Assembly (NCBI GenBank): GCA_008632985.1
Contig: QPGO01000039.1
Coordinates: forward strand, 186,001 to 250,000
Direction of reading: 5' to 3'
DNA from: Psammoneis japonica
Taxonomy: Eukaryota
Length of the DNA: 64,000 bases
Shown here: one piece after another, positions 972 through 62,211 of the stretch
How positions within the stretch are numbered: the first letter of the stretch is position 1
Layout of the letters: each line of letters opens with the position of its first letter
The notes under the pieces: generated by a model
The model's input: only the letters and a program-made list of their open reading frames with translations
Database searches by the model: none
Told to the model about the DNA's origin: nothing
Position numbers and translations under genes: made by a program

Positions 972-2656
972 ATCGGTCGGTTTTTCTTGCGTTTGCTGCT
1001 TTTTCTCCGGTCTTTCAATAGTCCAGTTATCCCTCTGTATTAACTTAAATCTGAAAACCTCAAAAAAAGCAGAGATAAAGCAGCAGGGCAACAACACGTC
1101 GCAAAAGCAACACGACCTCTGCTTGCGTTTATATTTTGCCTGCCCTCGAGAGGCCGGCGTGCCGGCGTGTTCCAACGTACGCCACCTTCAGAAACTCACC
1201 GGAGATTCGTGACATCGTTGCATATGATACTCTACGACCTTCTAAAATAGCAGTAGAGCTACTTAGGAGATGCCTGAGACATTATGAGGGCAGATACTAC
1301 AGACGATGATCAACGAGGGGCAGTTATTAGTTTCTGAATTAAAGTCTGCCGTTTCGTCTGGGCAGAATGTGTAAAGACGCTACATGAATTCACAACTTTA
1401 GCTCCTTCACGACCTCATCAATGCACTCACAGGCACACCCCGAGTCCACATGTAAACAGTTGTGTTCTTGTTTCTCTCCTCCTGGTGAACAAGGAAACTT
1501 GGCAATGGGTGGAGTGCACTTTTCTCGAATGACGGCTTGGGCATGTCGAAACGTGATCACTGCTTGTTGTTGGACTCAACGTCTTCCCAATGTTTCGATG
1601 GTCACATCCAGACTCTTGTTGACAGCTTGATAGAGAGCAATGTCCCATCGTATGACAGATTGATTTTGCAGCTGACATGGCTGGTTCCACAGCAAATGAG
1701 TGGGTCAATGCATCGACTTGAGGTCTCATTGACTCGATTGTGCCTGATGGACCTCTGCTTGGGGCAGCCTTGCTGGCAATCAACTCAATTTACCCAAAGG
1801 CCTCTTGGTGGAGTCAGTTCTCACCAGACTTGACCAACAGGGATGTGTTCTGCATGTTGGTCTCACGAGCGACAGCCACAGAGTCAGAAGCTCACTTTGT
1901 GCATCAAGTGAACGACTTTGCATGCTCGCATTTGGCAACACCTGGGTGTCAAATCATCAGTCTTGATTTCGTCAATGAGGCTCTGTCCATGTTGTTTGTT
2001 TTTTGGACACGTCAATTATGCCATTGACAAGTCACGTGGCTGTCAGCATGCTGTTGCAATGTGTCCAAGTGCGAGCAGTGTCACACACACATCACACTGC
2101 GCGACGTCATCTTTTGAACAAGATGGAGCACTTGTGGGTGCAATGAAGTCGACAGGAGACAGTGGGCACTCGCCCAGAATCACATGCCTCATGAACAACC
2201 ACACACTGCATGTGACAACAACAAGTGTGAGTGCGATGAGCGACACTTCTGCATCTCCTCCAATCAACATGACGACACAAGAGACGCTTGCGTTCATGCT
2301 GGACGATGATGCGATGCGTGCCAGTGTCATTCAAGATGTCTGCGTCACTGCAACTACACAGCAGGCCTCTGTTTTGCTGCAGTCGACACAACTCTTTTAC
2401 ATGAAACTGGCATCAGAGGAGGAACATGTCGAGCGCATCAGGAGTGATCATGATGAATCTCACAACATGTCAGCAACTCTTCGTGTCACCATGATGACTG
2501 ACTGTTGGAAGCAAGTGCAGATTGTCCAACAGAACAAGAGTGGTGCATGTGTGACCCCCTGTGCTTGTCATTGTCTCCTCACAGTGAAACAAACAGTGGC
2601 GGGCCAAACACTGGTGTGGTGGTGGGGTTGGTGTTGCTGGGAGTGGTGGTGTTGAC

Positions 2657-2892
2657 AGTCACGACTCAATGTCATTTGGTCACGTCTCACGACTAGAACC
2701 CAGACTCAACTCATTTGTCAATTTGTCCAGCCAACCACACAAATTGGATTCAAAACAAAGTCAACAACCTTTCGTCATAATTTCCAGACAACGACTTTCA
2801 TCAAGCGTCTGTTTGCCTCTTTGCCATTGTCATTGCTGCCAACCTGCGAGATCTCCATCCATCCCTCCCACTGCAGGGACTGCATCTCGAGT
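2657..2892 (+). repeat. 5' LTR of copia element
   Basis: AGTCACGACTCAATGTC...GCATCTCGAGT, direct repeat of 8848-9059. Confidence 0.9.
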
Positions 2893-3203
2893 GGTTGCAG
2901 AGCCCATGTTTGTGCATTGACGTGAAGCTCCTGACCGAGTTCTTCATTGCAGACGCTTTGTGTTTGATTTTGAAGAAAACCTGGGGAAGAGCTTGAGAGC
3001 TCCTCGCTTCTCTCGTCTTCATGCTGTCAAGAACCAACTCCCCACTCCTGCCATGTCTACGATGGACTCGGATGTGCTGTCGGAAGCGTTTGCCAAAGCA
3101 ATGGCCGCAAACAATGCCGCAAATCCCACTGTGACTCAAAACAATGCCGTTGCGTGGTGGAATCCATGCAACCCACAGGGTCTGCATTGGCGGTTGTTCC
3201 AAG

Positions 3204-3649
3204 TGCAGCATGCATCAGACAAAAGGTTGTTTTTGTCATGCCCTTTGTGACATTTAAAGGCTGCAACACGTCGCCGTGACACATTGGCTCTTGTCAGTGG
3301 CTGCACATTGCACTCCTCCCCCTGTGTCACGCGTCCATGCGGCTCTTTACTAACGTGCACTGACACTGCACGTTTTTGGCGGAACAGTGTGGGTACGTGC
3401 GAAGGAACACACAGAACTGCACAGAGTTTTACGCGTTCGACAGTGATCAACGTTGCTGCAGACAACTCCCACTCAGGGTTTCGAACCCCTGGCCTCCTGC
3501 CTGATGGTCACGATGAACCACTCCGCTGTGAATTCACAACGCAGCATGCATGCAGACAAAAGGTCATTTTTGTCACGCCCTTTGTGACATTTAAAGGCTG
3601 TAACACGTTGCCGTGATACATTGACTCTTGTTGGCAGCTGTGCGTTGCA
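3204..3649 (-). mobile_element. TRIM (mini LTR element) copy 1 with internal tRNA-like cassette, nested in copia
   Basis: ~110-bp direct repeats 3204-3312 and 3540-3649 with outer TG...CA ends; 4-bp TSD CAAG/CAAG; minus-strand PPT next to the left repeat; A-box/B-box at 3528-3476. Confidence 0.85.
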
Positions 3650-6600
3650 CAAGCTCAACAACAACTGTGCAATGACCTCATCAAGAACCTGCCAACTCGC
3701 TGCTCAGCATCGTCACCTGAAGGGAATCTCTCTCACGTTCTAGATCCTGACAGTGGCGTGCCCTTGGGCCTGCCTGCTCAGACCACCAAGGAACCCTCCA
3801 ATGTGGAATCGGTCCCCAATGAGTTGGTTTTTATGGGAATGTGGTGTGTGGCTGCGGATGCCACTGATGACCCTGTTTCATTCCCTGCGGTGGTTCCAAC
3901 TGCTGCTGCGTTTGCTCCGGCACCTTTGGCCGAGAGGGAGAGTGACGAGATTGTCAGTGCTGTGGTGAATTGCAACGAATTGAGCCCGCATGTCACTCAC
4001 CCAGTCGTGACCTCAGTCGTGCTTGAGTGCTCCGATGCTCCATCTGCGTTTGAACACAAACCACCGGCTGTTGAGTTGTTTCTGGCCTTGAAGCTGCACT
4101 CTGTCAAGCATCCAGATGAGTTCTTTGATGCTCCTGAAAATTTGACGGACATGCTGTCAGATGACACAAAGTCACATCTCATTCTTGAACATGAGCTGCA
4201 CTTTGAAGATGCACAGGACGACCCACCTCCATGTGTTGCGTGCTGCAGCTTTGATTTCTACAATCCAGAAGACCCAGGCATGGATGATTGTCATGGATGC
4301 GACAAGGAAGAGACCCCTTTGCATCAGTCTTTCTGGAGCTAAGCCAAACTCTTCGTGTTCTGGCTCGTGGCTGTGTTCTGGGAAACAGCGTTGCACTTTT
4401 GCTTTGCACCTGTCCCACGCATCCCTCGTGTGCCATGATGCAAGCATCACAAACGCTTTCTGGCATCTTGGATGGTGCTGTCCATTGCAGCAATGGTGTG
4501 GACCATGGTGCACATGGGCACATTGCCCAAGCACCCGTTTTCGAATGTTCCGAGCTGCTTTTCCACCACGGCCTCCCAAGTCTGTTTGGTTGTTGGTGAG
4601 CCAGACGAGAAGACAGTGTCAGATGCTGGAGCATTCTTCAAATGCAACAAGATCAAGGGCACGCAGGTGCTCACCGAGTTTGTCACGAACCATCCATCGC
4701 GCGCGGTGAGCAAGCATCTCCAAGCCCACTGGAAGGATCTCCAGAAGTTGTTGAATGGTCAGATGCAATTGACAAATCAGCCTTCTTTGATGCCCATGAG
4801 GAATTGGAACCTCTTGATGACCAGAAGCACTTCTTTGATGCCCTCAAGGAATTTAGCCCTGATTTCTTCCAGTTTGACGAACTCTGCATCCCCCATCACG
4901 TCGTGGACACTGCGCATTTTCAGTGTCCCATTGCTCTGTTGGAAGAAGCACGTGTTGGACCAGTCGTGTACAACACATCCACCATCCAGTTGCTTGCCGG
5001 TGTGTCTCAAGCCAAACTGCCAGCGTCTGATCCGCAGGCACTCATTGGACTGTCGGACGAGGCTCTGGCTGTCATCATGGATGCTGGTGCCACGTCAGCT
5101 GTTGCTCCGGATGAAGATGATTTTGCTGGACCCATGACTTTTCCCAAGAAACCTCTGCAGATCAACAGGATGGCCAATGGTCTGACCATTCAAGGTGCCG
5201 GACCAGTCGCGTGGGTGTTCACAACGCCAAGCGGAGCTGCCATCCACTGATCACCATGGCGTGTTACGTCCCTGGCGCCCAGCATCAGCACCTGCTCTCG
5301 CCTCAATGGCTCTTCAACAAAGAGAGAGGCATGTGTGGGAAGTGTGAGGGTGACGAGCATGGTTTCAAGCTCTGCATGGATGGCGTTGGACAGTTGGACA
5401 TGCCGCATCATCAAACAAGCCACCCACCCATTGCGTCGACAACCAAGGGGGCATCCGAAGCTCCCCAAGTCAACCCACTCATCCTCAACAAGAACAATCA
5501 GAACCTGACCACGGGCCAGAAGCTCTCATTGGACATGCACTCCCATTTTGGTCATTTGAACTTTGGCTGCGCACAGGCCCTTCTCCGCGCAGTTCCTTTC
5601 CTGTCGAATCAGTTCAAGGCAGCATCAAAGTGCGACCAGCCACATTGTGAAGTGTGCAAGTGTGCCAAAGGACATCGATGGTCTCCATGCTCAACCAAGA
5701 AACAACAGCCCCTGAACGCGATGGGGCGCTTAGTGCTGACCATCTCCGACTGGATCAGGTTGTCAGCGTTGATCAGTTTGAGTCACACCTCCTCGGCAGA
5801 ACCTTCAACTTGTGCGGCAAAGCCACATCCAAGCAATTCAAGGGCAGGTGTGTGTTTGTTGACCACGCCTCTGGCCACCTTCAGGTCAAGCATCAACCAG
5901 GTTTCTCCGCTGCAGAGATGATCCAAGCAAAACAAGCATGTGAGAAACATGCTTTGGACCATGGGGTCATCATTCAAGAATGTCTTGCCAACAGCAGTGC
6001 TTTCAAGGCCAACTCTTTTGTCCAGCATGTGAGAGAGCGTGAGCAACATGTCTGATGATTTTGTGGAACCAACGCCCATCATCAGAACAGCACAGCAGAG
6101 CGGAGCATCCAAAGCATTTCCAACATGGCAAGAGCAATGTTGCCACATGTTTTTCATCAGTCATTGGAAGGGGGGAGTTGACAGTTCCTTGTGGCCCGTG
6201 GCTGTTTCTTGTGCCACGCACATCTGCAATGTCACACCGAACATGCAACGGCATTGCCCAGCAGACATTTTCACAGGTTTGACAGTGCCAAGACATTGCT
6301 TGCGGGACATTCACACATGGGGGTGTCCAGCACATGTTCTTGACCCGGTCCTGGCATTGGGGAAGAAACTTCCTCGATGGCAACCGCATTCTCGCAAAAT
6401 GACTTTTTGTTGGTTTGAGCATGATCCATTTGAGCAAGGTCCCGTTGGTCCTCAATTTTCAAACTGGAAGCATCGCTCCTCAATGTCATGTGGTTTTTGA
6501 TGATCTCTTCACCACCACACCATCGATTGAGAGGGAGATCGATCCACCTGACCACTGGGAGCAACTTTGCCTTGAGCAGTCGATTTGCGTAAATCTCAAG

Positions 6601-8847
6601 GAGCATCAGACGGTCCACCTGCACGATGAGTGGCTTGCTCCTCCTGAACGCCAACACAAGGAGCAAGAACCAACCAGCCCAAGAGACCCGTCTTTGCGGT
6701 CATTTTCAACCAACTCCATCAATTCAAGTGCAAGATCCACCCATTTCTTGCACCGATGCACCTGATCCAGTCCCATCTGTGACTCAGGAACCCACGCCTT
6801 CAGCCCCACCTGTGACTCCAGCTGCTGCGGATCACACGGAGCCTGCGCAACCTCCGCCACCTTTGCCTCAAGAAAATGACAAACTTCCGCCACCTGAAGC
6901 ACCTTTCCAACCAACAGCACCACCTCCTGTTGAAGCACCTGCGACAATGAATTCAGAGAGAGCATCGGAGCTGTGACGGTCTTCCAGGTCAACCAAGGGA
7001 CAGCTCCATTCTACCAAGCTCATGGACAAAGTGCATTTCAGCTGTGTTGAGGAGGAAGAAGTGCCGATCGGGCATGAGGCTCAGCTTGCTTATCTCGCCA
7101 GTCTCAAGACTGATTTAGATGATGGCACACACAACATTGGCAACCCTTGGGCCCATGCAGCTGGCAAGAAGAGCAAGAACCCCGACATGCCTTTGCTGCA
7201 CAATGCTCTGAAGAGTCCAGACACCAAAAAGTGGATCAAGGCAATGAAAATTGAAGTCAACACACTCACACATCATCGAGCATGGAAAGCAGTCAACAAG
7301 CGCACGCTGCAGAAGAACGCACTTCCAGGCACGTGGGCACTGCAACTCAAGAGACCATCAGATGGCATGCTCCTGAAATGCAAGGCCCATCATTGCGTCC
7401 GAGGAGATTTGCAGAAAGAAGGCATCGACTGCTTTGAGACTTATGTGCCGGTCATGCAATGGTTCAGTGTCCGACTCATGCTCACCACTGCATTGAAGGA
7501 AGGATGGACTGCACATCAAGCAGATTACACTGCGGCCTGCGCATCACCGCCCAAGGGTTTCGTGCCAAAATCGGGACTCAACATGGTCCTCAGGCCACTG
7601 AAGGGACTCTGCGGCCTCAAGCAGTCACCGAAGTGTTTTCATGAGAAACTGCAAGACGGCTCAATCAAGCGCAGATGGGTGCCGTTGGCTGTTGACCCAT
7701 GCTTGTGCTTCAAGCAAGGCATGATGTGTGTCGTGCATGTCGACAACACGGCATTTGCTGGTGTGTCAGCTGAAGCTCTGGAGGAGGAGATTTGGAAACC
7801 AGGAGTCTCTGCCGACAAGCATCACCACGCATTCAAACTCAGGGACAAAGGAGAAGTCAGGAATTTCCTCGGGATTAAAATCAAGAAGCTCTCCGAGGGA
7901 CAATTTCTGCTCACCCAACTGGTCTCATTGACAATGTCCTGCGCACCACACAGATGCAAGACTGCAATGGAGCACCCACTCCAGTGCCACCCACTCCCAT
8001 TGGTGCCAACACGGACGGCCTCCCTTTTGACAAACCCTGTGATTGTTGCTCTGTTGTTGGAATGTTGATGTGTCCAGTGGCAAACAGCCGGCCAGACATC
8101 GCACATGCTGTGCATCAAGTGGCTCGATTTTCATTTGCACCCCGAGCGTCCCACGCTGCTGCAGTGAAGTGGATGCTCCGACACCTCAAGGCCACTGCCA
8201 ATGAAGGTCTTGTTCTCAAGCCTGCACAAGATCATCAAGTTGATTGTCACATTGGTTCTGACTTTGTGGGTTTGTTTGGTGTGGAGGACAGGCAAAACCC
8301 AGTTTCAGTCAAGAAGTCCAGGACTGGATGCCTCATCTGCTGCACCAGATGTCCGCTCATCTGGGTGCCCAAGCTGCAGACTCTTGTGGCATTGTCAACT
8401 GTGGAAGCAGAGTGTGCCACACTTTCTCAAGCTGTGCATGATCTCATCCCCATTCATGAAGTTCTCAAGGAGCTCAACCACCACGCATTCGGAAAGTCTG
8501 ACCACCAAAACCCCACCACGACTCACTCCAAGGCTTTCAAGCTTGCCAACCAAGGCTCCAAAGACTCACCCGTTGCGTAGAATGTCCTGCCTGCGTCCGT
8601 TGTGTACGAAGATAACACCGCGTGCCTCAAGTTTGCATGCATGCCCAAGTTGTCTCCACAAACCAAGCACATCGGTGTCCCGCACCACTGGTTTAGGACC
8701 AAAGTCAAACAATTGGAGATCGACACCCAACCTGTCAGCACTCTGGAGCAACTGGCCAATCAGTTCACAAAGGGGCTGCAGACCGATGCGTTCCGCATGG
8801 CTAGAAAGGCTCTCATGGGCTGGCGAGCTCTCTTGGTTGAGAGGGAG

Positions 8848-9059
8848 AGTCATGACTCAATGTCATTTGGTCATGTCTCACGACTGGAACCCAGACTCAA
8901 CTCATTTGTCAATTCATTTGGCCGACCACACAAATCGGATTCAAAACAAAGTCAATGACCTTTCATCATAATTTCTAGACAACGACTTTCATCAAGTTGT
9001 TGCTGCCAACCTGCGAGATCTCCATCCACCCCTCCTGCTGCAGGGACTGCATCTCGAGT
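8848..9059 (+). repeat. 3' LTR of copia element
   Basis: AGTCATGACTCAATGTC...GCATCTCGAGT directly after the PPT; ~24 bp shorter than the 5' LTR. Confidence 0.9.
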
Positions 9060-11491
9060 TTGATTGTTGTGTTGCATGCATGTCATCGTCGTGTTGTCAA
9101 ACAACAAGCAAATGCTCAGCAATTTGAGTTTGCTCGACGAATTGCCAAGACAATTGCTGTGGAGCGCAGTGGTTCATCATCCGTTTCGCATGAGGAACTG
9201 TTGAGTGAACCGCAAGCACGCAAGAACGAAATTCTGGCTAAAAATGAATTGAAAGAGTGCCTCACTTCGGGCAACATTGGTGTCGCCATGAACGAATCGC
9301 ACTTCAATGCCCCATTTGCAGTGATCGATGCAGACAGCACTGGCAACATCTCCTTTCTTGTGTTTGTGGGATGCATGGCCAAGTGCTGCGATGAAGTGGA
9401 GGAGGCAATGAGAGGAAGACCTTCTTGTGTTTGCATGTTTCGATCAGCTCAAGAAGTGGAAATGTCTCGCTGACGGGATCGCATTGCCAAGGCGGCTGCA
9501 AGAAAGCTTGGTGCCGCGACAGCAGTGATGACACCAAAAACAACAACTGCCATGGCGGCATTGGTGGAGCCTGATGACAACGCCGCACTGACAAGAAGGA
9601 TTCCAAGATGCAGAGCAAGGAAGACAAAGGTGGCAACATGGAACTGATGGCTCAGAACACAACAATTGAGCAGCAGCAGCGACAGAGGCTCCTGCTGGCT
9701 GGTCGAGAGACGATTGGGTAGACTGGGTGCGACTCTGTTTTGATGCCACATCTGTGGAGCACTGCATTCATTGTCGGGTTGCTTCCTGGTGCACGTTGTC
9801 ACTGGTGTCATTGCTGTCGGACAATCAAACTGGTCTCTTTTCTAAACTTAACTTACGACAACTGCTGGACGCTGAAACTTGTTGCGCAGTCGCACCAAAA
9901 ACGCATGAGAACCCCGCTGTCAAGGCCCAAGACTGCCCACAAACAGAAACTCTTTGACAAGCAAACATGAACGATTCCATCTGTCTCCACACTGTGCACA
10001 GGCAAGCTCTTGCTGCAGGTCTTGAGTGAACAAGAGTGCCCCCAAGCTGACGTTCACTCTGCCATTCTTGCACAGACAATCATGAAGTGGCTCTTGACAC
10101 TTGCGACCATTTTCATGACTGCTTGTTTTGTGGTGAAAGCACCGTCTTTTTTTGTGCCACTGTCGACCACAAACTGCAGGTTGATGCATCGGACCATGAG
10201 TTTTTCATCTCAGAGATTTGACAGAACCCCAAGTGGTGTCTCACTGCAACAGAAACAAGAATGAATGGCAATCTGGGCTTTCGCCTCTGCAACTTTGACA
10301 CAAACCCAGTCAATCAGTTGTGGAAGCTTGCTGCAAATGGAAGTCTCATGAGTGGAGTTGGGGCGACTCATTGTGCGCAACAGGGATGCTTTGGAACAAC
10401 AAGAGCCTTTGAAGGCATTTGCATCCGTCTGGGGGTGTGCAACGAAAATCCCATCCACAAGTTTACCTGCAACAACATTGCCAAGCATTTGAGGACTCCC
10501 AAAGGACGATGTGTGACCAATCGTGGTGAAAACCCTCACACCACCAACATTGTTCATGCATTGACGTGCATGAATTGAGGTGATTTCCAGCGGACTCTAC
10601 AAGCACAAGAGAGGGATCGTGTCGAGATGACACTGGCACCTGCACCCAAGGAGTGGCAGTCACCTGTCAAAGTGATGCTTGGATGTTGTCTCATGCTGTC
10701 TGTGCCTTTGTGGATGGCTTGGAGAAGAGCATGCCAACCATTGTTGCTTGGGTGACGATGGTCGTGTTGGTGTCAACTGTGATGCTCGCTTGGCGTGTGT
10801 GTGGATGTGCGCGTCTGTGCGGACGGAGGAGGGGCACGTCGTGGTCGTCCCATCGTCCAACCACCCCAACAGACTGGGTGCAAGCACACTGCCCTGATCG
10901 TGTGTGAGAGATTGGGAGCAGCTGAAGAAACGTGCTTTCTCCAAAAACACTGACCCGCAACTCTTCTGTCCAACTCTTCAGGGATGGAGTCCAATGGCAT
11001 CTTGGTTGTGACATGCCCCTTCTGTGAGCACTGGCATCTGCCAGATTCAACATTGCCAAAAGACATGCCCAAGGCAGTCCGTGCTCACCCATGCTCTGAA
11101 CATGAGGAAGCAGACCTTTGATTCCTCCCACTTGAGTTTTTGTCGCAAGCCGGTTTGCACTTTTGCCATCATTGCAACTCCACCTCTCATCTGCACCTGC
11201 AATCCGGCGACCTGCGAAAACATGTCACGAAACACAATGCCCACATCTTCACACTAACTCAGAGCTCATTGCTCAACACCTCCCACAAGGCACCGCATGG
11301 CCTTCCACCCTCCGCTGGCTCCAAACCCTCACTGTCACGCCACCACCTTTCCGTGCGTCTCTCTTCTCCAAGCTCTCTCCATCCACCAAACGTGAGCTGC
11401 ATATTGCACTCCACCATGTCTGCACATGGATTTTGGCAGCCTCCAACCCCCTCCAAACTGACGGCGTGCAACCACCACTTCATGAACGCTC

Positions 11492-16400: not shown

Positions 16401-16429
16401 TGTGGCCAATCACACCTAGAATCGACACC

Positions 16430-41598: not shown

Positions 41599-41871
41599 TT
41601 TGCTTGGCTTGTTGCCGCCTCATGGCAACGTCATCGTCGTCATGGTGTCGTCACTCTCGTCATGTGTTTTTGTTCTGTTTCGTTTCAACTTCGTCGATGC
41701 AGTTGGTTCAATGCCCTGGTGAAATGATCAACCTTCATCAGTTAGAAGATGCATGAAATCAGAGATGCAACATGTTCATGTGTGAATGAAGTGGGGGCAT
41801 GCATAAAAGCATGATGCAGTTTGGGAAGCACTGCATGGGTGTGACCCTGTGACGTCCGCAAAAAGGCTTTG

Positions 41872-52939: not shown

Positions 52940-54000
52940 GCCTGGTCACAGACGTGCGCCGGTGCAAAGCAAGACCCCCTGCTGGGAGGATCGTACCGTG
53001 GGTCGCAGCCTCTTTTCGGCAGGAAGCAATCGATGCTGTCAAGCTTGAGGCACTTGCGCCGCTTGACATTGCTGCTGCAGAGAAGACAGAAATTGCATCC
53101 TTTTGACACCTCCACTGGTGCACTCATCCCAATCTCCGCAAGTGGAGTCAGCATAGATGGAAATAGTGCACATGCCGCCATGACCACGTCCCGTGCTTTT
53201 GACATTAAGAATGTCACCCGTAAATTTGGTGTGGTGCCCCCCCCCAAAACAAGATGGCAAAAGCCACCAACGGGGACCTCACCGTCCTTTTTGCCAGGGC
53301 CAAACGACAGCAAGCTCTGTCCATCTCCAAAGTCACATTCATCTGACAAGCCATCATCGTCCATCGCAACTAACTCACAACTGTCATTGTCATGCAACCC
53401 AATCACAGTGTCGTCGATGTCAGATCCACAGGTGTCGATGCGGAGATGGGTTTCACTGCTGAACATTTCAAACATGAAAAAAACGACCTCATTGGGATTC
53501 AAACATCCCGAGTAATGCGATCCAAAGCTGCGCACAACGCCAAAGTCATGTTCGATTGGCGGCCGCAGGTCAGTGTCAGCACAGATTGCAACTCGGCATC
53601 TGCCGCCACGACCGGTTGTTTTCACCTCAAAGTCATCCTTTGCAGATTTCGATGTTCCAAAAAAACCAATCTCCCAACGCAAGGCAGTAAGTGCCAGACG
53701 GAGGGACCGGTCCATCGGACCCCGCGTGGGATTCCCCTCTTTCTTCACAATCACAAATGTCTTCACCGGAGCCAACGCCAAACGACAGCGTGCTGAACAA
53801 ACCGGCACGACCATCCTCGTCCTGCGCAAGCAAATGACCATCTGAATCACACAGAGCAACAAAAGTGTCGATTGGGATAAATTCATCGCCAGCCTCGGTT
53901 GCAATGTCAAGATGCGTTTCCTCGCCTGTCAAACAAAACCCAAACCAATGCACCTCATTTGGCCCCAGAGAATTCCCATGCCCAAACCCGCATCCAATGT
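52940..54000 (-). pseudogene. PPC/DVUA0089-like repeat protein, copy 2
   Basis: Colinear with 63005-64000; Tyr mostly replaced by Cys/His; frameshifts. Confidence 0.8.
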
Positions 54001-57000
54001 TAAAAAAAAATGTCTTCAAGCTTCGGCTGTGCCTGAACTGCTGCCATTCCTGCAATGGAAGCGAGAAAAGCAAGAGATGTGCCAAGCTTCATGGTGCTTG
54101 TCCTGCGTTGTAAAAAGGCAAATCGAGAAGATGTTGGTCAATGATCTTGTTGGTCCGTTGCACAGTTGTGCACAAAAGTTGGAACACTTCTTGCAGCAGA
54201 GAGCCACAAGTGCTTTCAAACAGCACAAGATGAAGCAAAAGGGTGGGTCTTTCAATCACAGATGAGGTCTTGGACTGCCGCTCTCAAGACGACAGTGAAG
54301 TCCTGATGGTGCACAGAGTGTGTCATGGAACAATGCATGCTCAATTTATGAGGAGAGCGCGGGGGGGAGGGGTTTCCCAGGTGACAGGGCATTGTGGACA
54401 GATGCTCCAAATGATGGTCAACTCGAAGTGTGTTGGAGAGAGAGGAGTGGAAAGAAGAAAGAAGACAATGAAGCTCCACGTTGCCAGCAACACACCTCCA
54501 CTGCATGTGTCCAATGCATGGAGTGGCCACATGAAACGAGTTTGCGCTCACCTTTATCGGAATTGTTGCTGTTGTCGTTGTTGTTGCAATTGCAGTGTTG
54601 TTGCTCAAGCAGTGTTTTGTGTTTTATGATCACGTGTTTTTTCTTTGCCGTCCAAACTCCAAACTCACACAAACTGGAGTGGTCTTGCTTTTGAACATTT
54701 GAAACAATCTCGACACGAAAATCTCTGCATTAAAAAACGCGAAAGCGTGTCAACTTGGGTGTCAACCCGACCCGAACCCTGAACACATCCATCGTGTCAA
54801 CACCTCCTCATGGTGCTTGTTGTTGTTGTTGTGACAAGTGAGCGCCGTTCACTTCACCACCATCAGCGAATTCCGGGTTGCTGATCGTAGGTTCTGCGTG
54901 ACTTTTTCCATTGGCATTGTCTGTGCCGTCATCACCAGGAACATGAAAGAAGGTTTGTTCCAACGCAAGATTCCCAATTCTTCTGCTGTTTCCGTGGTGC
55001 ACTTCTTGTGCATGCAGGAATCAAGTTGCGCGCAGACTTTGGCGGCCACAGAAGGAGGAAAGGTGGTGCTGGGTGGGCGGGCACATGATTGATGGAAAAA
55101 GGTGATGGAACAATGTGGGCAAGGAGGGGGGCAGCAGAGCAAGGTGACAGGCTTGTTGCTGTGGTGTGGCAAATGTTGAGTGATGGCACTCTGGTTGTCT
55201 GTTGACAAAATCAGAAAGAACAAGGGCCCAACAGGCAAGTGCCAGCTGCAGTGCCATCACAAGTTGCACTTTGTTGAAAGGCAAAGTCAAGCCACAAAGA
55301 CTCTTCTTGTGCTCAAAGCAATGTGAAATGAAAAGCAAAGAGGGGGGCCTCGCTGGGGCGGAAGAGAAGTCCCGGCTCGGTCCACTCGATGGGACGAGCT
55401 GGTTGTTTGTTTTGCAACGGGCTCAATTTTGACATCAAAGCAGTTGAGAGCAAACTCCAGATGCAGTTTTGACATGAAATGACCAGCTTCTCAAGGATTT
55501 TTCTTCACCCAGTTTGTGCCATGGTGCGAGTGCTGTGTGTGGACAGCAGCTGCAGCTCGGGGGGGGGGGGGGGGGGCAGCGCCAGGTGGCAACCCAGATG
55601 CATCAGCTTGCTCTTCAAAAGAGCTGCAGCCACAACCCAGCAAACCCAGATGGCAGTTGCCAGAAGCAGATCTCTTGCTTGAAGTGAAGCTGCTGCTCTG
55701 AGTTGTTTTTGCACATGAAGAAAAACAACAAGAAAGCTCATTTCCAGCTGCGCCAGCGGGGCTGCTGGGTTTGCAAGTGAGAGCAGGGGTCGTGCTGCAA
55801 GCTGGGGCAAGCAAAGTCACTGGAGACAACTCAAACTGGGGTCATGTGCATGATCTTGAAAAAAGGGAACAGGAGCGCTGGATCAAAAGAAGAGAAAAAA
55901 AGCACTGCACAGGCAAGGGCACCCTGCCGAGGCAGCAAAAAGCACGCCAACTGGCTTTGCTCCCCAGGTGCACCAGCTGCTCCCCTGCAAAAGAGTTTTG
56001 TCATTGCTGTGTTTCTGTCTTGTGCTTGTTGTCAAAGTTTTGCATGCACTGGACAAGCTGATGATTTGAACAAGGTGCTGAAGCAACACACAAACATGGA
56101 GTGTGTGCGCATGGAAGTGGGCCGCGTTTTGTGAAGGAGTTTCTGGCAATGCAGAGCAGCAGAGAACCTGCTGTGCAATTTAAAACCACACACAGATGAG
56201 TCATGGTGAGGCACTGAAAAGTGTGGCAGAGCAAACTGGCGAGAAGGGAACAAACTGCAAAGCATGGTCATGGTGTGCAAGCACAAAACTCTTTTTCTGT
56301 GTTCTGCATTTTTGATGCACTGGCCGAAGGACTGCTTCAATCTTGACATCTCTCAGGCTTTGCTTCTGACAAAGTGATGAGGATTCCAATGTTTGTGCCA
56401 TTGGCTGCAGGCATCCCGTCGCCTGTCATTGTTTTGTCTTTCGCTGGTGCGAACACAGTGGCACAACACATGCACATGCAGATGGGTGTTGTGTCATTTT
56501 AAGGGGCTCAAGTGTTGTTTTGTTGATCTCATGTGATGTTTTGTCAGCGGGCATTGCATTTGTGTGTTTTGGCCAACCAGAAAACTCTTCCTGAGATTTG
56601 CGACATTTTTGTCAAAGGAAAAGAACAAATGAAATGCTCTTTCTTTTGTCGCAACGACAAATTGCAATTGGCCATGTCAAAACAAAGGCGATTTGTTGAT
56701 GTCCCATGTGTCATGACATGATGTGATCACATTTGTTCTGTGACTGGGTCACAATCATCACAACACTGTCGCACAGCCCTTCAAAAACACGATTGTCGAA
56801 CTTGGCGTCACACAATCATGCTTCTACATTCACGAACAATTTTTACAACTCCTCACATGCGTTCTCATCAAAGAACACTTTTTCAGGAAGTGATGTCATT
56901 TGTGCTGTTTTTTTAACAACTTCAATGCCTTCTATCTCGAAAACGAGTCAGAATCCCCCCACTTTTCTCATTTCCAAAACATCTCTTTTACTCAATTGCA

Positions 57001-58154
57001 TGACATGAGTGAATCATAAAAAAATCTGCAGAACCATTTTGGAGACATTTTTGCTTTTGTGCAATCGTGCAGCATGTCACGAGCTCTTTTTCTGAATTTT
57101 GGTCTCAACTTCACGATCGGTGTTCCATGCATTGAAGCGCAGACAGAACCCTGAAACCATTGTTTCCTCATCCACCTTCACGCATTTTGCACTTGGTCCA
57201 CAAAAGTCAGACCCATCCACCCGGTTTGAAAAATCTCTCTCCGTTTGCTCCTCCTTTCGCCGACCAACAAGGTCCCATTTTTTCAAAATTCCAAAAAACA
57301 AGTTGAAATTCCAGGCCCTGATCGGCACACAACACTTGGTTGACACACACCTGACTGCAAGACGCCTCTCCAGGTCCCTCCCCGTGAGGCAAAACACTTG
57401 GCCGGCCGCGCCATGAGAGCGCAGCCGGTCCATCCAGGGTGCAGTTTTGCTGGCTTTTCCAAACCTCTGTTTCACTCAAGACTGAGTGTTGAGATGGCAC
57501 AGTCCTGATGGTGCACAGAGTGCATTCATGGAACAACACATGCTCAAATCACAGGCTTTTCCCACCACTCGGCAACAGGGCATTGTCCACTGCTGCTCAA
57601 ACCGCGCAAATTTTGCACCACAATTTTTTCAAAACAACATGTGCTGCTGTCACAGCCATTGTGCAGCATGCCATTTGAGCCCCATTTTGTCAAAATGCCA
57701 CCTCATGTGAGACTGGCAATTGCTCAAATGTGCACTTTGAGTCCAAAATGATGGGTGCTCATGCGAAACTGCAGTGCAGCACTGGCGCCTGCTGCACTCA
57801 GCCCCACACTCCCCTCATCATGACATTGCACACTTGGGGCACAACAGTTGTTCCGTGTGTGTCAGAGAGAGGGCACACACCATGACTGCAGGTGCAGCTG
57901 CACAGGTGTGCATGACCAGCAAGCGGAGTTTGCGCACACTGACAATGCGCAGTGATTGTGCGCAGTGCCATGAACAGTGCTGCACAGGTTGTGGTGTGTA
58001 GAGTTGGCGCAATGGAAATGAAGTGCTCTTGGAAGTCCTGGGCAACAGCGACATTTCTTGATCACAGAACATTGTTTTTTTCTTTTCTCAACAACATGTG
58101 TTCATGTGTCACACCAGAGCTCCTTGCGACAGTCATCATTTTCATGGATGCATG

Positions 58155-58270
58155 TTTGAGCAATTGCTCAAACTTGCAGAAGTTTGAGCAATCTCACAAG
58201 TTTGAGCAACTGCTCAAAGTTGCCAAGTTTGAGCAAATGTCAATGCAAGCAAAAGCAATTGCTCAAACTG
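58155..58270. repeat. Cluster of TTTGAGCAA motifs in both orientations
   Basis: Four TTTGAGCAA and three TGCTCAAA copies within ~115 bp. Confidence 0.7.
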
Positions 58271-59832
58271 TTGCTGGCAAAATCCAAGACTGAAACACCA
58301 CTCAGCCATGATCGTCAAACATTCTTGCTTGAGAAGGCATCCACTCATGTCCACTGCAAACACGTGCTTGTGCACATTTGAGCATTTTTCCCACATGGCA
58401 CTGTGGCAGCATGCAGCTTTGCAAGCTCTTCTGCAATCTCTTTTTCATTCAAGACTGAGTGACGAGCACTTCATGAAGTGTTGTGCATGCTCCAAATGCC
58501 CCATGTGTTGATGCCAGCAGTGCTTGTCTTGTTGCAAGCACATCCTCACAAGCAGTGCAAGAGCCACACAAGGAGAGCCACCTTCTCTCTCTCCTTGTCA
58601 GCATGCTCTGCTGCTGCAAATCTTTAGAGAACTGCAAAAGCAGCGTGCAGCTGGCTGCTCAATGAGTTGGTTTGCAGTTTTTTCTCCTTTTTTGTCAACC
58701 AGCAAAATGCCATTCACACAAACAAGTGCCACAACTCTCTTTTGTTCTTTGCCTTGGTGATCTGCCCAATCATGCCTCAACCTCTCAAGCCTGCAGCCAA
58801 GTGTCCCATTTCATGGCTTTGGTGCATCCAAAAGGTGCTCTGAGAGAGTTTGGCAAAATGTTGGCTTTTTTGGCATGCACTTTGAGCCCGCCATCTTCTC
58901 AGAGTGTCTTGAAACCTTTGCCCTCACTTTCTCAAGATGGCACTCAAATGATTGTCATCAGGTCATCTGCAAGCATGCCTGGTGTAAAAGACAAACCTCA
59001 GAACAGGTGTGTCTCACACTTTTTCTGGAAAAAAATTGGAGTGCAAAGCTTCCAGGATTCCATGTTGAGTCAGACACAGCAGCAACCCAGGTTCACATCA
59101 AACAAGGTTGGCCGCTGAAGACCAACACATTCTAGATCCACACAGAGTCTGTGTGGTTGCAGTGCAAGAAAAAAGCTCGGGCAACTCTTTGAGCACCTTT
59201 TTTTGCACCAATTTTTTCCCTGAAAACTGCGTGCAATGATTTGCAGATTTGTGGAGAGGGTTTTTGTTGTTTTGGCTCAAAAGAGCCTTTTGCCAGCACC
59301 AGGCTTGAGATTGACAGCATCACTCCATTGGGTGCATGGTGCACCCACAAAATGATGAGGCTGCTTTCTTGATGATTCAAAGAAAATGTTGCTTGTGGCT
59401 CTGCCGAAGCACGGAGAAGCTCAGGGAGATTGACGATCACACTTTGACGCCAAAGCCAACCAGGGACGAATTTGAACCACCCGTTTCTTTTTTGCACAAG
59501 TTGTGACCTTGTGCCACTTGAACTTGGGCATCAAGGATGCCCGCACTTTCCCCTGCTCCAATGACTTGCAACAGCTGCTCTCGACACGGGAGCTTCACAA
59601 ACACCACCGCCCAGGCACGAGAGTCTGGCCTCAGAAGGCAAAGCCTGCAGAAAACATCTTGGGACACGCAAATTGGTGCCATGGCAGCAAAATGAGAAGA
59701 ATCTGGAACATCAATTTTGTGAATGAATCACACAGCAGTTGCCACTCGAGGTGGCGTGCGTTTTGCTTGTTGCATCAAATCTCTGCAACAATCGCCCCCT
59801 CATTTGAATTGAATTGTTCAATCTTCATTGCC

Positions 59833-62211
59833 GTCAGTCTATCTCCCATTCAAGCAGCTGTGGTTGCTCATCGTGGGTGCCTCTGGCACAACACACGTTG
59901 GTTCAAAGCCCCGATTCCCGATCGTGCGTTGGCGAATTGGCAAGTTGTTGAGAAGCCTTTTTGGCCGGTGCCCATTGGATTGAAATTGATGTGCAGTGCA
60001 CCAAGGACGGAGTGCTTGTCATTGATCACAATGCCGACTTGGGAGAAACGACCGACATTGCCGTTTGGGCATGGGCGGCACCGCTTTGTTGTCGAACCAA
60101 GGCCATGCCATGTCGGGACGAAGATCCATCCACCGTGGAGAGGTGGGTTGTCAAGGACTTGTTGCTCGAGGAAGCAAAGCAATTGCATGTCAAGGAGAAG
60201 AGCGAGTGTCGACCACAAGATTGCAATTCAATGCACGACATTCCAACACCAGCGGAAACAGCTGACTTTGTACAAGACATGGTGGACAGTGAATGATTGC
60301 ATCTCACAAACAGTGTGACCAAGTCCAAGTGGCTTCAAGAACGAAATCGGTGTGTGTCAAAGTGCGGACGTTGCCGACCGAATCCCCGAGTTGGACTGTG
60401 CATTGAAACAAAATGTCCAGCGTGGTGTTGATCTCTTGGTTTGCCACTCAAAGAGAAACTGGCAGACATTGTTGACAACAGCAAGATTGAAGGACCAGCA
60501 ATTGCACAGAGCTTTGAAGAAGACAGCCTCCGGCAGATGCAAGAGCTAAAGCCAGACTGGAAGACGGCAAGCTCATGACAAAGCATGATGCTGACAGTGC
60601 CACAAATTGCCAAACACTTGTCACTTTTCATGCACAAAGCACCTTCGATCGCCCTGAAGAGGAAAATTTCCTTTCGTTGGCTCGCTTGCACCAGGCCACG
60701 TAGAAAATTACAGTGCAGAGTCTTGCTGCTTTCCAACTCCTCCCTCCGACCACCAACAACAACACGCGGTGAAGCACGAGGATGTGTCCGACAATGGCGG
60801 TGCCCATTCTCATTGATTCTGCCAATTTTCACAACTCTCCTGTGTTTCAGTGCGCTCTCAATGGCGACAAAAGAGAGCTTTGTTGCTTGCATTGTTTCCG
60901 CTGGTGCTTTCACTCACATTTGTTCTCTGTCTGCACTGTTTTGACATCCTAGCTGGCGTGTCGTATGATGCTTGCTTTTGTTCAGCAGCATTGAGGCTCA
61001 ATTGATCTTTCATCAACCGAAGCTGGTGAATGTCGTTCGAATGTTGAATGTTTGGTGTTGCAGTGTGGACGTTCGAGGTGATGAGAGGGGGCCACAAATG
61101 GCTCGTGCAAGAGAGAAATGGAGCACTCAACTCGTCTCTCTCATGAGTGGGATCTTGAACCGGGTGATGCAGTCCATTGAGCGAAAGTGTGTGTGACAGA
61201 CATGCTAGAAGGAAGAGTTGCATGTCACTGATGGAGACATTGAATGCATTGCATGCAGTGCAAACATCAAAAACACTCTCTCTGCATCGGCAGAGCAAGT
61301 GACTCGCTGTCGGCTCTCAATGACACAGCGCGAAGAAGACAGCAGAAATTTCAATTTAGCTTTACAGGCAATGGATCTAGGAACAAAGGCAGCATTGTTG
61401 AATGATTAAATGGAATGCTTGTCATTGACAGGCGTTTGAGTTTCGGCGCAGTTGTGTTCACCACGCCAAACATTGTCGTCTTGTTTTGCAGTGCTGTTCA
61501 GTGTCCTGTATCCTGCAACTCCTTGCTGTCAACATTGTGCTAAAGGTGTCAATAATTCCTGTGAACAAATGCTGTCATTTCCATTCTTTTATTAGAGAGG
61601 GAAAGTTGTCGCAAACTGCCGACGGTGTTCCCCGCATTGTCGCGTGTTGTTTTGCGAGAAGCGCGGGTGAAACGTCGGAGGGAGTTTCTGTACATAGAAT
61701 TCTGCGTGGCCTGTACAAACGAACAACGAATGGAAAATTTCCTCTTCAGAGCGATCGAACGCGCTCTGCGTGCGAAGAGTGACAAGTGTTTAGCAATGCT
61801 GCTAGAGGTAGTTTCCCTAACCAATAATAAATTTGTAGCATCATGAGTGACAATGGAGATTTGGACAAGTTTATGCAAGGCCTGACATCCTGGGGTTGTG
61901 ATGGGATTGGACCCGACAAGTCCTCTGTTGTTCCAAAAGCGACGTTTCCTCCGAACAGCTCTCCCTTGATTGAGGCGGCACATGCTCACGGTCTCTTTGT
62001 TCACCCCTATACCTTCAAGAGCGACACGTTGCATCTACACCGAGTCTATGGTGGCAATACAGGCCAAGAATTTGCGCAATTCTTCAAGCTTGGGATTGGT
62101 GCCTTTGCGGATTTTCCCGACCACGCGGTGTTTGCAAGGGAGCTGTACAATCGTTTGCAGATTCGAGGAGATGGTTTTTTGTTGTTTTCCGACGTGAAGG
62201 GACAGTTTTAG
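59833..62211 (+). pseudogene. GDPD copy C, split by a 1.24-kb DNA element; 5' half hypermutated, 3' half nearly intact
   Basis: 59833-60599 aligns to ~45835-46567 with stops; 61839-62211 aligns to ~46566-46941 with an open frame. Confidence 0.92.
60600..61838. mobile_element. Non-autonomous DNA transposon with ~120-bp imperfect TIRs, inserted at TA (Tc1/mariner-like target)
   Basis: Empty site GACAGTATCATG in copy B; ends C(C/T)ACAAATT / AATTTGTAG; 60607-60720 is the inverted match of 61687-61797; TSD now reads TG (left) and CA (right). Confidence 0.85.

Follow-up and report, generated by a model that had tools for sequence, protein, structure and literature searches.

The 64-kb window, by which we mean the whole stretch of Psammoneis japonica DNA analysed here, was divided by a two-state segmentation into TA-normal DNA and six TpA-depleted (LOW) blocks, which cover 38.6 kb of the 64 kb (Table 1). 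The preliminary description called the TA-poor stretches transposon blocks, which holds insofar as retrotransposons are present, but dead fragments of host type (GDPD, serpin, ricin-B lectin, LRR, COPI_assoc/EF-hand) lie in the LOW DNA together with the transposons. GDPD and a second gene, here called gene X, belong to a duplicated unit, with one normal and one converted gene in each unit copy, and the edge of LOW block 4 lies about 85 bp ahead of the intact GDPD open frame. Between 12 and 16 kb the + strand is markedly C-rich.

Table 1 Features of the 64-kb window (TA and CG, observed/expected ratios, o/e)
Feature	Position	Strand	TA o/e	CG o/e	Context
LOW block 1	1454-12537		0.09	0.54	
Serpin fragment	1722-2024	+			inside LOW block 1
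Copia-type element, RVT_2	6977-8068	+			inside LOW block 1
Ricin-B-lectin fragment	10222-10575	+			inside LOW block 1
Long-inverted-repeat element, short copy	11492-12966				begins in LOW block 1
TA-normal island	12538-12920		0.44 (13 TA)	1.23	right arm of the short inverted-repeat-element copy
LOW block 2	12921-20532		0.06	0.36	
RVT_1 remnant	13264-13779	+			inside LOW block 2
COPI_assoc/EF-hand pseudogene	15851-16744	-			inside LOW block 2
LRR fragment	17306-17719	-			inside LOW block 2
Gene-rich TA-normal segment	20533-36696		0.58	1.00	
RPS9	23019-23690	+			gene-rich segment
RWD-domain gene	29324-30433	-			gene-rich segment
p27-domain gene	32623-33618	+			gene-rich segment
Control tandem duplicate	34517-34982 / 35092-35568				gene-rich segment
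Dead GDPD copy c37	36494-36989 and 37393-37818	+			LOW block 3
LOW block 3	36697-39307		0.08	0.36	
LOW block 4	40849-45373		0.12	0.76	
Very abundant element, long copy	inverted ends 41202-41598 vs 44571-44960				LOW block 4
Intact GDPD gene, copy B	45457-46941	+			TA-normal
Gene X, dead copy	47847-48935				LOW block 5
LOW block 5	47895-52001		0.06	0.37	
Second Copia RT remnant	49351-50510	-			inside LOW block 5
TA-normal island	52002-52681		0.68 (37 TA)		piece of abundant repeat family
LOW block 6	52682-61356		0.06	0.51	
Gene X, third copy, dead	52907-53990				inside LOW block 6
Dead GDPD copy C, 5' part	59938-60598	+			inside LOW block 6
1.2-kb insertion, inverted ends	60599-61836				splits GDPD copy C
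Dead GDPD copy C, 3' part	61837-62483	+			
Gene X, TA-normal copy	62964-64000	-			open frame 63008-63865 (-)

In 1-kb windows, the TA o/e is 0.20 or lower in 35 of 64 and 0.26 or higher in the remaining 29. The pooled LOW DNA (38,614 nt) contains 179 TA, while 2386 ± 38 are expected from 200 mononucleotide shuffles (shuffle minimum 2286), and the o/e values are 0.07 for TA, 0.49 for CG, 1.74 for TG and 1.65 for CA. The pooled normal DNA, taken as the five large segments (24,323 nt) with the 1,063 nt of the small islands set aside, contains 1024 TA against 1700 ± 29 expected, with o/e values of 0.60, 0.97, 1.19 and 1.13, respectively. Counts given in the preliminary description (1 TA in 5041-5400 and 12 in 27121-27300) were reproduced exactly, and its four TA-poor blocks are the six LOW blocks of the segmentation, two of them being split where the small TA-normal islands interrupt LOW DNA. 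The loss of TpA in blocks of this window is real, and the earlier observation is confirmed.

The direction of the change was derived from a few paralogue families in this one 64-kb window, as were the rates, with intact copy B as the ancestral-state reference for both dead GDPD copies. The 17 TA of copy B at 46187-46515 appear in copy C, as described before, as 9 TG, 6 CA, 1 TA, 1 GA and no CG. Over the 5' part of copy C, 20 TA became 11 TG, 7 CA and 1 GA, with one kept, and c37 (37393-37818) has 6 TG and 4 CA in place of the 10 TA of the intact copy. Where the three copies overlap, 10/10 TA of the intact copy are absent from both dead copies, which carry opposite products (TG in one, CA in the other) at 5 of the 10 sites, and this requires a TA ancestor. 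When 21 nonsynonymous TA changes were compared with eight outgroup GDPD proteins, the intact-copy residue was found in 94/168 cells and the derived one in 4/168; 7/28 scored changes in GDPD are synonymous. TA is retained at 6/79 sites. The paralogue alignments, the three-copy comparison and the outgroup proteins all confirm a change from TA to TG or CA, which is opposite in direction to fungal RIP, as had been proposed.

The TA-normal islands within LOW DNA look young (CG o/e 0.90-1.23, abundant family), as they should if TA were converted to TG/CA throughout the genome, the normal DNA being constrained or young and the LOW DNA simply old and neutral. This is nevertheless improbable, as the TA o/e is 0.65 (190 observed, 292 expected) at the largely synonymous codon 3-1 junctions of 11 open frames and 0.67 in the normal DNA outside these frames (12.6 kb), and synonymous TA survive in the intact GDPD gene while being converted in both equally old dead copies. 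Furthermore, the 3' part of GDPD copy C has 5/6 TA converted up to 61956, whereas from 62008 onward 12/21 are kept and 1 is changed to TG/CA, which places an abrupt domain edge inside a single duplicate, in an interval of about 50 bp. The loss is regional, without a genome-wide bias, and synonymous and intergenic TpA near genes are normal.

Most of the converted DNA occurs more than once in the window or in great abundance among the reads, and some diatoms have DNMT4 enzymes that are kin of the RIP factor RID (PMC9998398); both points would suit a homology-triggered, RIP-like process with another chemistry. We consider it very unlikely, since the control tandem duplicate (~470 bp, 90% identity, in gene-rich DNA) retains 20/21 aligned TA, the intact copies of GDPD and gene X remain unaffected despite their converted duplicates, the 5' and 3' parts of GDPD copy C are not converted alike, and TA-normal pieces of abundant repeats exist. 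Sequence duplication is not the trigger.

Both TG and CA are elevated in LOW DNA, so both strands are affected; strand runs were absent (z = +1.3, +1.3 and −0.8), and both Cys and His occur at the conserved Tyr columns of the Copia reverse transcriptase. Retrotransposons (RVT_2, RVT_1) are among the targets and RNA adenosine deaminases prefer a 5' U, as stated in the Discussion of a preprint (bioRxiv 10.64898/2026.01.13.699255), as would be expected of ADAR/ADAT-type editing of transposon transcripts that are then reverse transcribed and inserted. The equality of the strands, with Tyr replaced by either residue, speaks against such editing, as do the in-place conversion of segmental gene duplicates and of the inverted-repeat element, the conversion edge inside GDPD copy C and the lack of any increase after a 5' A (27/331, see below). 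The affected DNA includes retrotransposons, the long-inverted-repeat element and dead host-gene copies, and RNA editing, already contradicted by strand symmetry and non-retro targets, was rejected as scarcely tenable.

The substitution spectrum was obtained from four pairs of normal and depleted paralogues. A>G changes are 5-6 times commoner after T (64/167) than after A (27/331), C (21/347) or G (23/336), i.e., 0.06-0.08 for the last three, and the proposed dependence on a preceding T withstood this comparison. CpG decay accompanies the TpA loss, as noted earlier, with C>T in 62/318 CpG and in 15/346 CpA, 12/261 CpC and 18/253 CpT. This decay, together with TA being one of the two WA motifs, would be in line with the previously suggested error-prone patch repair of polymerase-eta type at deaminated 5mCpG (WA>WG), but ApA stays at background, A>G transitions account for 64/77 changes at the TpA adenine and there is no strand bias, which contradict this candidate and leave it with very little probability.

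In E. coli, the scarcity of CTAG has been attributed to very-short-patch repair. A comparable bias would arise here if repair of deaminated 5mC resolved T:G to C:G and thereby turned replication errors at TpA into TG and CA, which are its expected products; the CpG decay suggests that such repair would be busy in the blocks. However, A>G outside TpA is not raised (0.06-0.08, with non-CpG C>T at 0.04-0.07), so the bias would have to be specific to TpA, which the model does not predict, and the effect, with TA retained at 6/79 sites, is large for it. We regard this explanation as unlikely. 5mC deamination is insufficient for the TpA loss, as the preliminary description had argued. TpA conversion is several times faster than CpG decay of the same blocks, and near-complete TA loss occurs with mild CpG decay in LOW block 4, which indicates that the coupling of TA loss to 5mC is loose or absent.

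A secondary context rule is also observed: conversion is disfavoured at TAA and almost fails at TTAA, and hardly any ATAT is left. Scored per strand, A>G is found in 18/89 cases if the next base is A and in 99/263 otherwise (Fisher p = 0.0027). Among surviving TA, TTAA makes up 34/179 in LOW and 45/1024 in normal DNA, while ATAT accounts for 1 of 179 and 68 of 1024; the contexts of surviving TA differ between the two classes (chi-square 102.7, 9 d.f., p = 4e-18). CG products are nearly absent at converted TA sites.

Run X1 yields contigs of up to 315 kb, at a word depth of ~30, that are identical to LOW DNA, e.g., at 37684-40812, 47769-49117 and 50851-52058, although the window may have been assembled from this very run and library types of the runs are off record, which leaves some room for an artefact of sequencing or base calling due to modified heterochromatic bases. 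An artefact is very unlikely given this exact match and a metagenome contig with the same signature: L041, a single short contig and one of 80 unrelated Copia loci from metagenomes, has o/e values of 0.04 for TA, 0.20 for CG, 1.64 for TG and 1.69 for CA, with Cys or His at 3/7 conserved Tyr columns. Besides the TpA changes, the converted copies show CpG decay, indels and further substitutions, the choice between TG and CA was made independently in the two dead GDPD copies with almost no CG, and in Bigelowiella natans Illumina data yielded the same mutations (bioRxiv 10.64898/2026.01.13.699255).

The signature of the window is that seen live in mutation-accumulation lines of B. natans, an unrelated alga. 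The preliminary description knew of no such process, but this 2026 preprint describes an A:T>G:C hypermutation confined to TpA in integrated viral DNA: in two hypermutable regions 230/231 single-nucleotide mutations are A>G or T>C, the GC-biased ones all at TpA, and reverse-transcriptase and DDE domains are enriched in TpA-depleted, CpA- and TpG-enriched clusters (bioRxiv 10.64898/2026.01.13.699255). With B. natans as the one earlier report, the diatom/bolidophyte clade is so far a new lineage for the TpA signature, and the window adds saturation, pseudogene targets, the accompanying CpG decay and the secondary context rule, with TAA disfavoured and TTAA refractory.

We propose, with a probability of about 0.55 for the explanation as a whole, a region-restricted, in-place hypermutation of DNA at TpA in silenced DNA by a recruited enzyme. 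That a TpA-specific regional hypermutation acts at the DNA level is highly probable; the real, directional and region-confined change described earlier is borne out, and the pattern is best read as the work of a mutator that is targeted locally and strictly requires a 5' T. About 60% of the window, which is nuclear DNA of a diatom or a near relative, would be silenced DNA, namely retrotransposons, the abundant inverted-repeat element and dead host-gene duplicates, whereas expressed genes and their intergenic DNA would be spared, with sharp borders. A:T would change to G:C nearly only at palindromic TpA, the strand affected deciding between TpG and CpA. The adenine of either strand would require a 5' T and be converted more slowly before a 3' A, which would explain the near-refractory TTAA and the near-elimination of ATAT, and the near absence of CG would follow because a step that has been hit once would not be attacked again.

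Targeting through chromatin or silencing state is somewhat favoured. The domains may be the large blocks of CpG-methylated repeats reported from diatoms (PMC5124317, PMC11842555), to which the enzyme would be recruited; CpG decay together with these published methylomes points to a possible link of LOW domains to heterochromatin and 5mC. Our best guess for the agent is a 5'-T-requiring DNA adenine deaminase, TadA/ADAT2-like or another deaminase-fold protein, producing hypoxanthine in DNA that would be fixed as G upon replication. Adenine deamination is put forward tentatively, at somewhat less than even odds, and thymine chemistry accounts for the pattern equally well, as TpA is palindromic and A>G on one strand is indistinguishable from T>C on the other.

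In dinoflagellates 5hmU, and in kinetoplastid telomeres base J, lie on a T followed by A. A symmetric modification of TpA in silenced DNA, either a hydroxylated thymine of this kind or a modified adenine, could mispair and yield TG and CA, acting at TpA as 5mC does at CpG, whose decay it parallels in the same blocks. The palindromic target, the involvement of both strands without strand runs and the domain restriction are what a maintenance-type mark would give. On the other hand, the modified thymines known so far are weak mutagens, and the B. natans bursts, limited to some lines in the preprint's account (bioRxiv 10.64898/2026.01.13.699255), fit a switched enzyme better than a constant mark; we hold such a modification to be rather unlikely.

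Under the recruited-enzyme reading, the TA-normal pieces of abundant repeats amid LOW DNA (12538-12920, 52002-52681 and 61357-61836) either postdate the most recent activity or mean that targeting is not purely domain-based. The first of them is read as a younger insertion with conversion still to come. Two relatives of the second have converted its aligned TA to TG/CA at 17/25 (11507-11845) and 14/24 sites (41217-41556), and are older than this island.

One-kilobase windows fall into two classes, with an observed/expected (o/e) ratio for TA of at most 0.20 in 35 of the 64 (many at 0.00-0.10) and of at least 0.26 in the remaining 29. Two-state segmentation gave six TpA-poor segments (LOW blocks), which are listed in the table alongside the pooled counts; the normal pool excludes the two small TA-normal islands. 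The remaining dinucleotides differ little between the two pools. The block map of the preliminary description is the same as that of the segmentation, apart from these two islands, and its TA counts (1 in 5041-5400 and 12 in 27121-27300) are exact. The TpA depletion is a real and striking feature of the window.

TpA-depleted and TpA-normal DNA of the window, and fate of TA sites in paralogous pairs (TA of the normal copy, then the state in the depleted copy)
Feature	Positions	Length (nt)	TA sites	TA o/e	Other dinucleotides, o/e
LOW block 1	1454-12537				
LOW block 2	12921-20532				
LOW block 3	36697-39307				
LOW block 4	40849-45373				
LOW block 5	47895-52001				
LOW block 6	52682-61356				
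TA-normal island interrupting LOW DNA	12538-12920				
TA-normal island interrupting LOW DNA	52002-52681				
LOW blocks, pooled		38,614	179 vs 2386 ± 38 (200 shuffles)	0.07	CG 0.49, TG 1.74, CA 1.65
Normal DNA, five large segments		24,323	1024 vs 1700 ± 29 (200 shuffles)	0.60	CG 0.97, TG 1.19, CA 1.13
GDPD, intact copy B and dead copy C	45905-46566 (normal), 59938-60598 (depleted)		20 TA: 11 TG, 7 CA, 1 GA, 1 TA		
GDPD, intact copy B and dead copy at 36494-37818	45991-46411 (normal), 37393-37818 (depleted)		10 TA: 6 TG, 4 CA		
Gene X, downstream of GDPD	62964-64000 (normal), 52907-53990 (depleted)		49 TA: 22 CA, 12 TG, 5 TA, 10 other		

With the loss of TpA the LOW blocks are stripped of TAA and TAG stop codons, and TGA is nearly the only stop left. 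As a result, many long overlapping open frames without a family match run on both strands, and these are likely mis-called as genes. Annotation is affected by the removal of TAA and TAG stops, by tyrosines turned into Cys or His, by long false open frames and by weaker homology searches for transposon proteins, and repeat dating by CpG or overall divergence will be biased by TpA conversion. As a separate feature of composition, the + strand is strongly C-rich at 12001-16000 (GC skew -0.27 to -0.34), over an element bearing RVT_1. This skew far exceeds that of the rest of the window, and symmetric TpA and CpG changes do not account for it.

The direction of change can be read from a duplicated unit, composed of GDPD and the downstream gene X, of which the window holds three copies that overlap in part. 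Conversion, that is TA replaced by TG or CA, has occurred at 18 of the 20 aligned sites in dead GDPD copy C, at 10/10 in 37393-37818 and at 34/49 in gene X. For the 17 TA sites of copy B that were followed in the preliminary description, the reported fates (9 TG, 6 CA, 1 kept and 1 other) are reproduced exactly. In the GDPD stretch shared by three copies, all 10 TA of the intact copy are gone from both dead copies, and five of these 10 sites carry opposite products, TG in one dead copy and CA in the other. This can only be explained by a TA ancestor that was struck independently on opposite strands. Eight outgroup GDPD proteins were compared at 21 nonsynonymous TA changes; of the 168 cells, 94 hold the residue of the intact copy and 4 the derived one. 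In addition, synonymous changes account for 7 of the 28 conversions scored in the dead GDPD copies, and at these sites the intact copy retains TA. A foreign origin of the blocks is rejected, since the paralogues show conversion in place.

To obtain a substitution spectrum, four normal-versus-depleted pairs were pooled over both strands. The preference of A>G for a 5' T, on which the earlier interpretation hinged, is borne out: A>G affects 64/167 (0.38) of the A after T, against 27/331 (0.08) after A, 21/347 (0.06) after C and 23/336 (0.07) after G. The value at TpA tops out near 0.5, because a single strike abolishes the site; TpA loss is at least one order of magnitude above A>G elsewhere. 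The A of TpA underwent 64 A>G, 9 A>C and 4 A>T changes, so that 83% are transitions and 13/77 transversions. Error-prone repair by polymerase eta (WA>WG), one of the candidates of the preliminary description, does not agree with this spectrum, in which ApA remains far below TpA and transitions dominate. GC-biased gene conversion lacks context specificity, whereas A>G is elevated only after T.

The C>T changes reach 62/318 at CpG and 0.04-0.07 in other contexts. UV-type damage is rejected, as non-CpG C>T, counted without a split by 5' pyrimidine, stays at background. Deamination of 5mC is a closer parallel, since it also turns a palindromic dinucleotide into TG/CA in silenced DNA, and the same blocks have a CG o/e of 0.49. 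As had been proposed, it accounts for the CpG loss only and for none of the TpA loss. In the same three alignments 6 of 79 TA are kept compared with 70 of 141 CpG, which indicates that TpA loss is several times faster than CpG decay. No CG arose from TA in the three-pair alignments, and only isolated cases were found in two further comparisons; this near-absence is expected if the A on each strand requires its own 5' T.

A secondary context rule is also seen, by which TAA is disfavoured and TTAA refractory. Counted per strand, A>G occurred at 18/89 sites when the 3' base is A and at 99/263 when it is another base (p=0.0027). TTAA makes up 34 of the 179 surviving TA in LOW DNA and 45 of the 1024 in normal DNA, while ATAT falls from 68 in normal to 1 in LOW DNA and ATAC/GTAT from 144 to 4. 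Overall, the 4-nt context of surviving TA differs between LOW and normal DNA with a chi-square of 102.7 (p=4e-18).

The process is regional. A genome-wide bias that selection filters out of genes is contradicted by neutral-type sites of the normal segments: the largely synonymous codon 3-1 junctions of 11 open frames have 190 TA versus 292 expected (o/e 0.65), and the normal-segment DNA outside these frames (12.6 kb) has an o/e of 0.67. In the 3' part of dead GDPD copy C (61837-62483), conversion has reached 5 of 6 TA sites up to 61956, while from 62008 onwards 12 of 21 are kept and 1 is converted to TG/CA, a contrast that sets a domain edge about 50 bp wide within one duplicate. LOW block 4 stops about 85 bp upstream of the live GDPD open frame. 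Besides this edge, a repeat-induced origin is opposed by a control tandem duplicate in gene-rich DNA (34517-34982 and 35092-35568), in which 20/21 TA are kept, and by the intact GDPD and gene-X copies, which are unconverted. The copy lost to conversion would be whichever one fell silent. The two units at 45457-48935 and 59938-64000 have reciprocal fates, with GDPD normal and gene X converted in the first, and the opposite in the second.

These observations separate the window from fungal RIP, which is likewise a transition hypermutation that destroys transposons and gene duplicates and is recorded as blocks of altered dinucleotide content. Duplication sets off RIP, and both copies are mutated; in the window, duplicates that lie in gene-rich DNA escape, and only one copy of a pair is converted. 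The chemistry is also the reverse, CpA to TpA with TpA enriched, and the earlier statement to this effect holds, as in the LOW blocks TpA is depleted, CpA enriched and C>T at CpA limited to 15/346.

Both strands are struck. TG and CA outcomes follow one another without runs (z = +1.3, +1.3 and -0.8), and conserved tyrosines of the Copia reverse transcriptase (RT) in the window have become Cys at some positions and His at others. Among the LOW-block targets are segmental duplicates of genes, an element at 41202-44960 whose ends are long inverted repeats, and serpin, ricin-B lectin, LRR and COPI_assoc/EF-hand fragments. The earlier designation as transposon blocks is therefore correct in part: a Pfam scan finds RVT_2 and RVT_1, but dead host-gene fragments are converted as well. 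An event at the RNA stage is rejected by the joint rise of TG and CA, the lack of strand runs, the change of Tyr to both Cys and His, and the non-retro targets. APOBEC (C>U, in cDNA) and ADAR (A>I, in dsRNA) likewise leave deaminase-type, context-dependent transitions in genomic transposon copies, but as they act at the RNA/cDNA stage their traces are strand-asymmetric and restricted to retro-copies, whereas those in the window are symmetric, in place and extend to non-retro DNA. ADAR-type editing also fails because A>G at ApA (0.08) is about the same as at GpA (0.07), both strands are struck and segmental duplicates are converted in place. The depletion of CTAG in E. coli is attributed to very-short-patch (Vsr) repair, which also turns TA-containing words into CA/TG, as a by-product of T:G mismatch handling tied to cytosine methylation. 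The Vsr effect is, however, genome-wide, depends on a pentanucleotide context, has no regional targeting and is far weaker than that of the window.

The preliminary description, correct in essence, knew of no precedent, and in this it is superseded by a 2026 preprint that reports the signature in the chlorarachniophyte Bigelowiella natans (Mettrop et al., 2026, bioRxiv 10.64898/2026.01.13.699255). Of the 302 single-nucleotide mutations found in the nuclear genome of mutation-accumulation lines, 231 were located in integrated NCLDV and virophage regions; 230 of these 231 were A>G or T>C, with the GC-biased ones all on TpA, the regional rate was about 1000-fold that of the remaining genome, and hypermutation occurred in only 11 of 15 lines (10.64898/2026.01.13.699255). 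The authors propose an ADAT2-like DNA adenine deaminase. In the available text of the preprint diatoms are unmentioned, and the terms "trinucleotide" and "flanking" are absent from its main text (10.64898/2026.01.13.699255). Within the openly accessible literature this is the one prior report of TpA-specific hypermutation, and none was found for diatoms.

The window shares with B. natans the near-exclusive A>G/T>C changes, the restriction to TpA with a strict 5'-T context, the TpG/CpA products and, over the 64 kb examined, the regional confinement. The long-term footprint is also alike, TpA being scarce and CpA+TpG abundant in clusters of 1-kb windows, and the TpA-depleted coding sequences of B. 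natans are enriched in RT and DDE domains, RT being among the window targets too. In contrast, B. natans is a rhizarian and the window is from a stramenopile; the targets there are NCLDV/virophage inserts, and here transposons and dead host-gene duplicates. No viral hallmark domains were found in the LOW blocks, for which Pfam gives RVT_2, RVT_1 and host-type pseudogene fragments. The o/e of 0.07 in LOW DNA is near saturation, compared with 0.45 in the B. natans NCLDV region, and CpG decay accompanying TpA loss and the secondary context rule are seen in the window. In B. natans live mutation was shown, whereas the window holds the footprint alone. We file the window signature with the TpA hypermutation described in 2026. 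The lineage is new and the range of targets wider, the footprint reaching beyond viral inserts to transposons and silenced gene duplicates.

Among diatoms, CpG methylation is concentrated on repeat blocks in Cyclotella cryptica (PMC5124317) and Thalassiosira rotula (PMC11842555), repeat blocks reported as methylated span up to 30 kb (PMC5124317), and a DNMT survey also belongs to the papers that show this pattern (PMC9998398). The available passages of these three papers make no mention of TpA hypermutation.

The comparisons show a TpA-specific A:T>G:C process that acts on both strands and in place, is bounded by domains, is faster than CpG decay and is influenced by the base on the 3' side of the A. 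The LOW domains may correspond to methylated, silent chromatin, at which an enzyme would be aimed, and the chemistry would be adenine deamination. TadA/ADAT2 natively act on tRNA at A34, which follows U33, so that a need for a 5' T would come naturally to a deaminase with this fold. The main rival is a mispairing modification of T or A directed at TpA; as TpA is palindromic, sequence alone does not separate it from deamination. Four other readings, namely repair by polymerase eta, editing of the ADAR type, homology sensing as in RIP and a genome-wide bias, are each contradicted by the comparisons above. We give a probability of about 0.4 to a conserved, chromatin-guided TpA base-editing defence across SAR (diatoms and chlorarachniophytes), in which an enzyme would change A:T to G:C in silenced DNA of any origin, as a counterpart of RIP with the opposite chemistry and without homology sensing.

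The targets of such a defence would be transposons, viral inserts and redundant gene copies, and in diatoms TpA editing would be one of the main forces that erode transposons and set the composition of the repeat-derived half of the genome. The preference for TAB over TAA would then offer a handle for enzyme discovery. A saturated footprint in a diatom or bolidophyte would make TpA hypermutation more than the curiosity of one alga, and it may be widespread in marine protists. As transformation, CRISPR and published methylomes exist for diatoms, the TpA-editing enzyme and its targeting become testable, and base-editing work would have an interest in a natural editor of DNA adenine that is specific to one dinucleotide.

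To address a possible artefact, we compared the LOW DNA with contigs of sequencing run X1 (up to 315 kb long, at a word depth of about 30-fold), which show zero differences over 37684-40812, 47769-49117 and 50851-52058, a match that alone is not independent since X1 may be the assembly's own data. No relative emerged from a metagenome scan in which the hypermutated RT was the sole query. An RT alignment as query recovered 497 relatives, and an RT homologue search found only 3 proteins. We analysed the best 80 of the 497, all Copia loci, a selection that favours intact copies, and the whole-locus TA o/e is at least 0.37 in 79 of them. One metagenome contig among the best 80 (L041, 1-1789) has 5 TA in 1789 nt (o/e 0.04), with o/e values of 0.20 for CG, 1.64 for TG and 1.69 for CA. 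It carries a different Copia-type RT, and its DNA matches the window in one weak 66-nt stretch. At seven conserved-Tyr columns L041 has 2 Cys and 1 His, compared with Tyr at 7/7 and 6/7 in two control loci. This contig is independent support that the footprint is no artefact.

Within or bordering LOW DNA lie the two islands of the table and a third TA-normal stretch at 61357-61836. The two islands belong to one repeat family, in which the summed word depth in X1 reaches 28,000-77,000, a value that compares with 30-40 in single-copy bins and does not equal copy number. Over 40670-45338 and 52009-52675 this abundant family has depths of 4,400-77,000; no Pfam domain was found in these two stretches, and long inverted ends are present at 41202-41598 and 44571-44960. 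For the TA-rich piece 52011-52351 (25 TA), the aligned sites are converted at 17/25 in 11507-11845 and at 14/24 in 41217-41556. Compared with the abundant read variant, the long copy has CA at 44767 and TG at 44846 where the reads have TA, and the relation is the opposite at 43682. We read this as a family whose active copies bear TA and whose inserted copies erode over time. The islands are probably younger, as their CpG is undecayed (o/e 0.90-1.23). Dead GDPD copy C is interrupted by a 1.2-kb insertion with inverted ends of about 100 nt (60599-61836). In this insertion the first 760 nt from the left are TA-poor (5 TA) and the remaining 480 nt on the right TA-normal (18 TA), so that either the footprint is mosaic within one inserted element or a younger insertion is nested in it.

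The genes of the window are long single open frames, encoding RPS9, GDPD and two further proteins, one with an RWD domain and one with a p27 domain. The RPS9 frame shares 90% identity with its counterpart in the diatom Chaetoceros tenuissimus and 81-85% with proteins from bolidophytes, brown algae, xanthophytes and raphidophytes. A maximum-likelihood tree (17 rows, named relatives) unites it with Chaetoceros and a bolidophyte in one clade (support 100/96). This indicates a diatom or a close relative, and not Bigelowiella. The window contains no Rfam families or tRNA, and no deaminase domain was found among its 276 scanned open frames of at least 90 residues. Two overlapping frames (32623-33701 and 32826-33164) each match the short p27 (Auto_anti-p27) zinc-ribbon domain, and the p27-domain gene has internal direct repeats of 70-270 nt. 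A second run, X2, comprises 30 Mb of contigs whose depth is very uneven. Of the 30 bins of 36001-56000 it covers 10, mostly TA-normal gene segments (36001-36667, 38669-40669 and 45339-47339) and nearly no LOW DNA. One X2 contig, at 38860-40469, extends into LOW block 3 by about 450 nt. The coverage pattern of X2 looks like that of a transcriptome.
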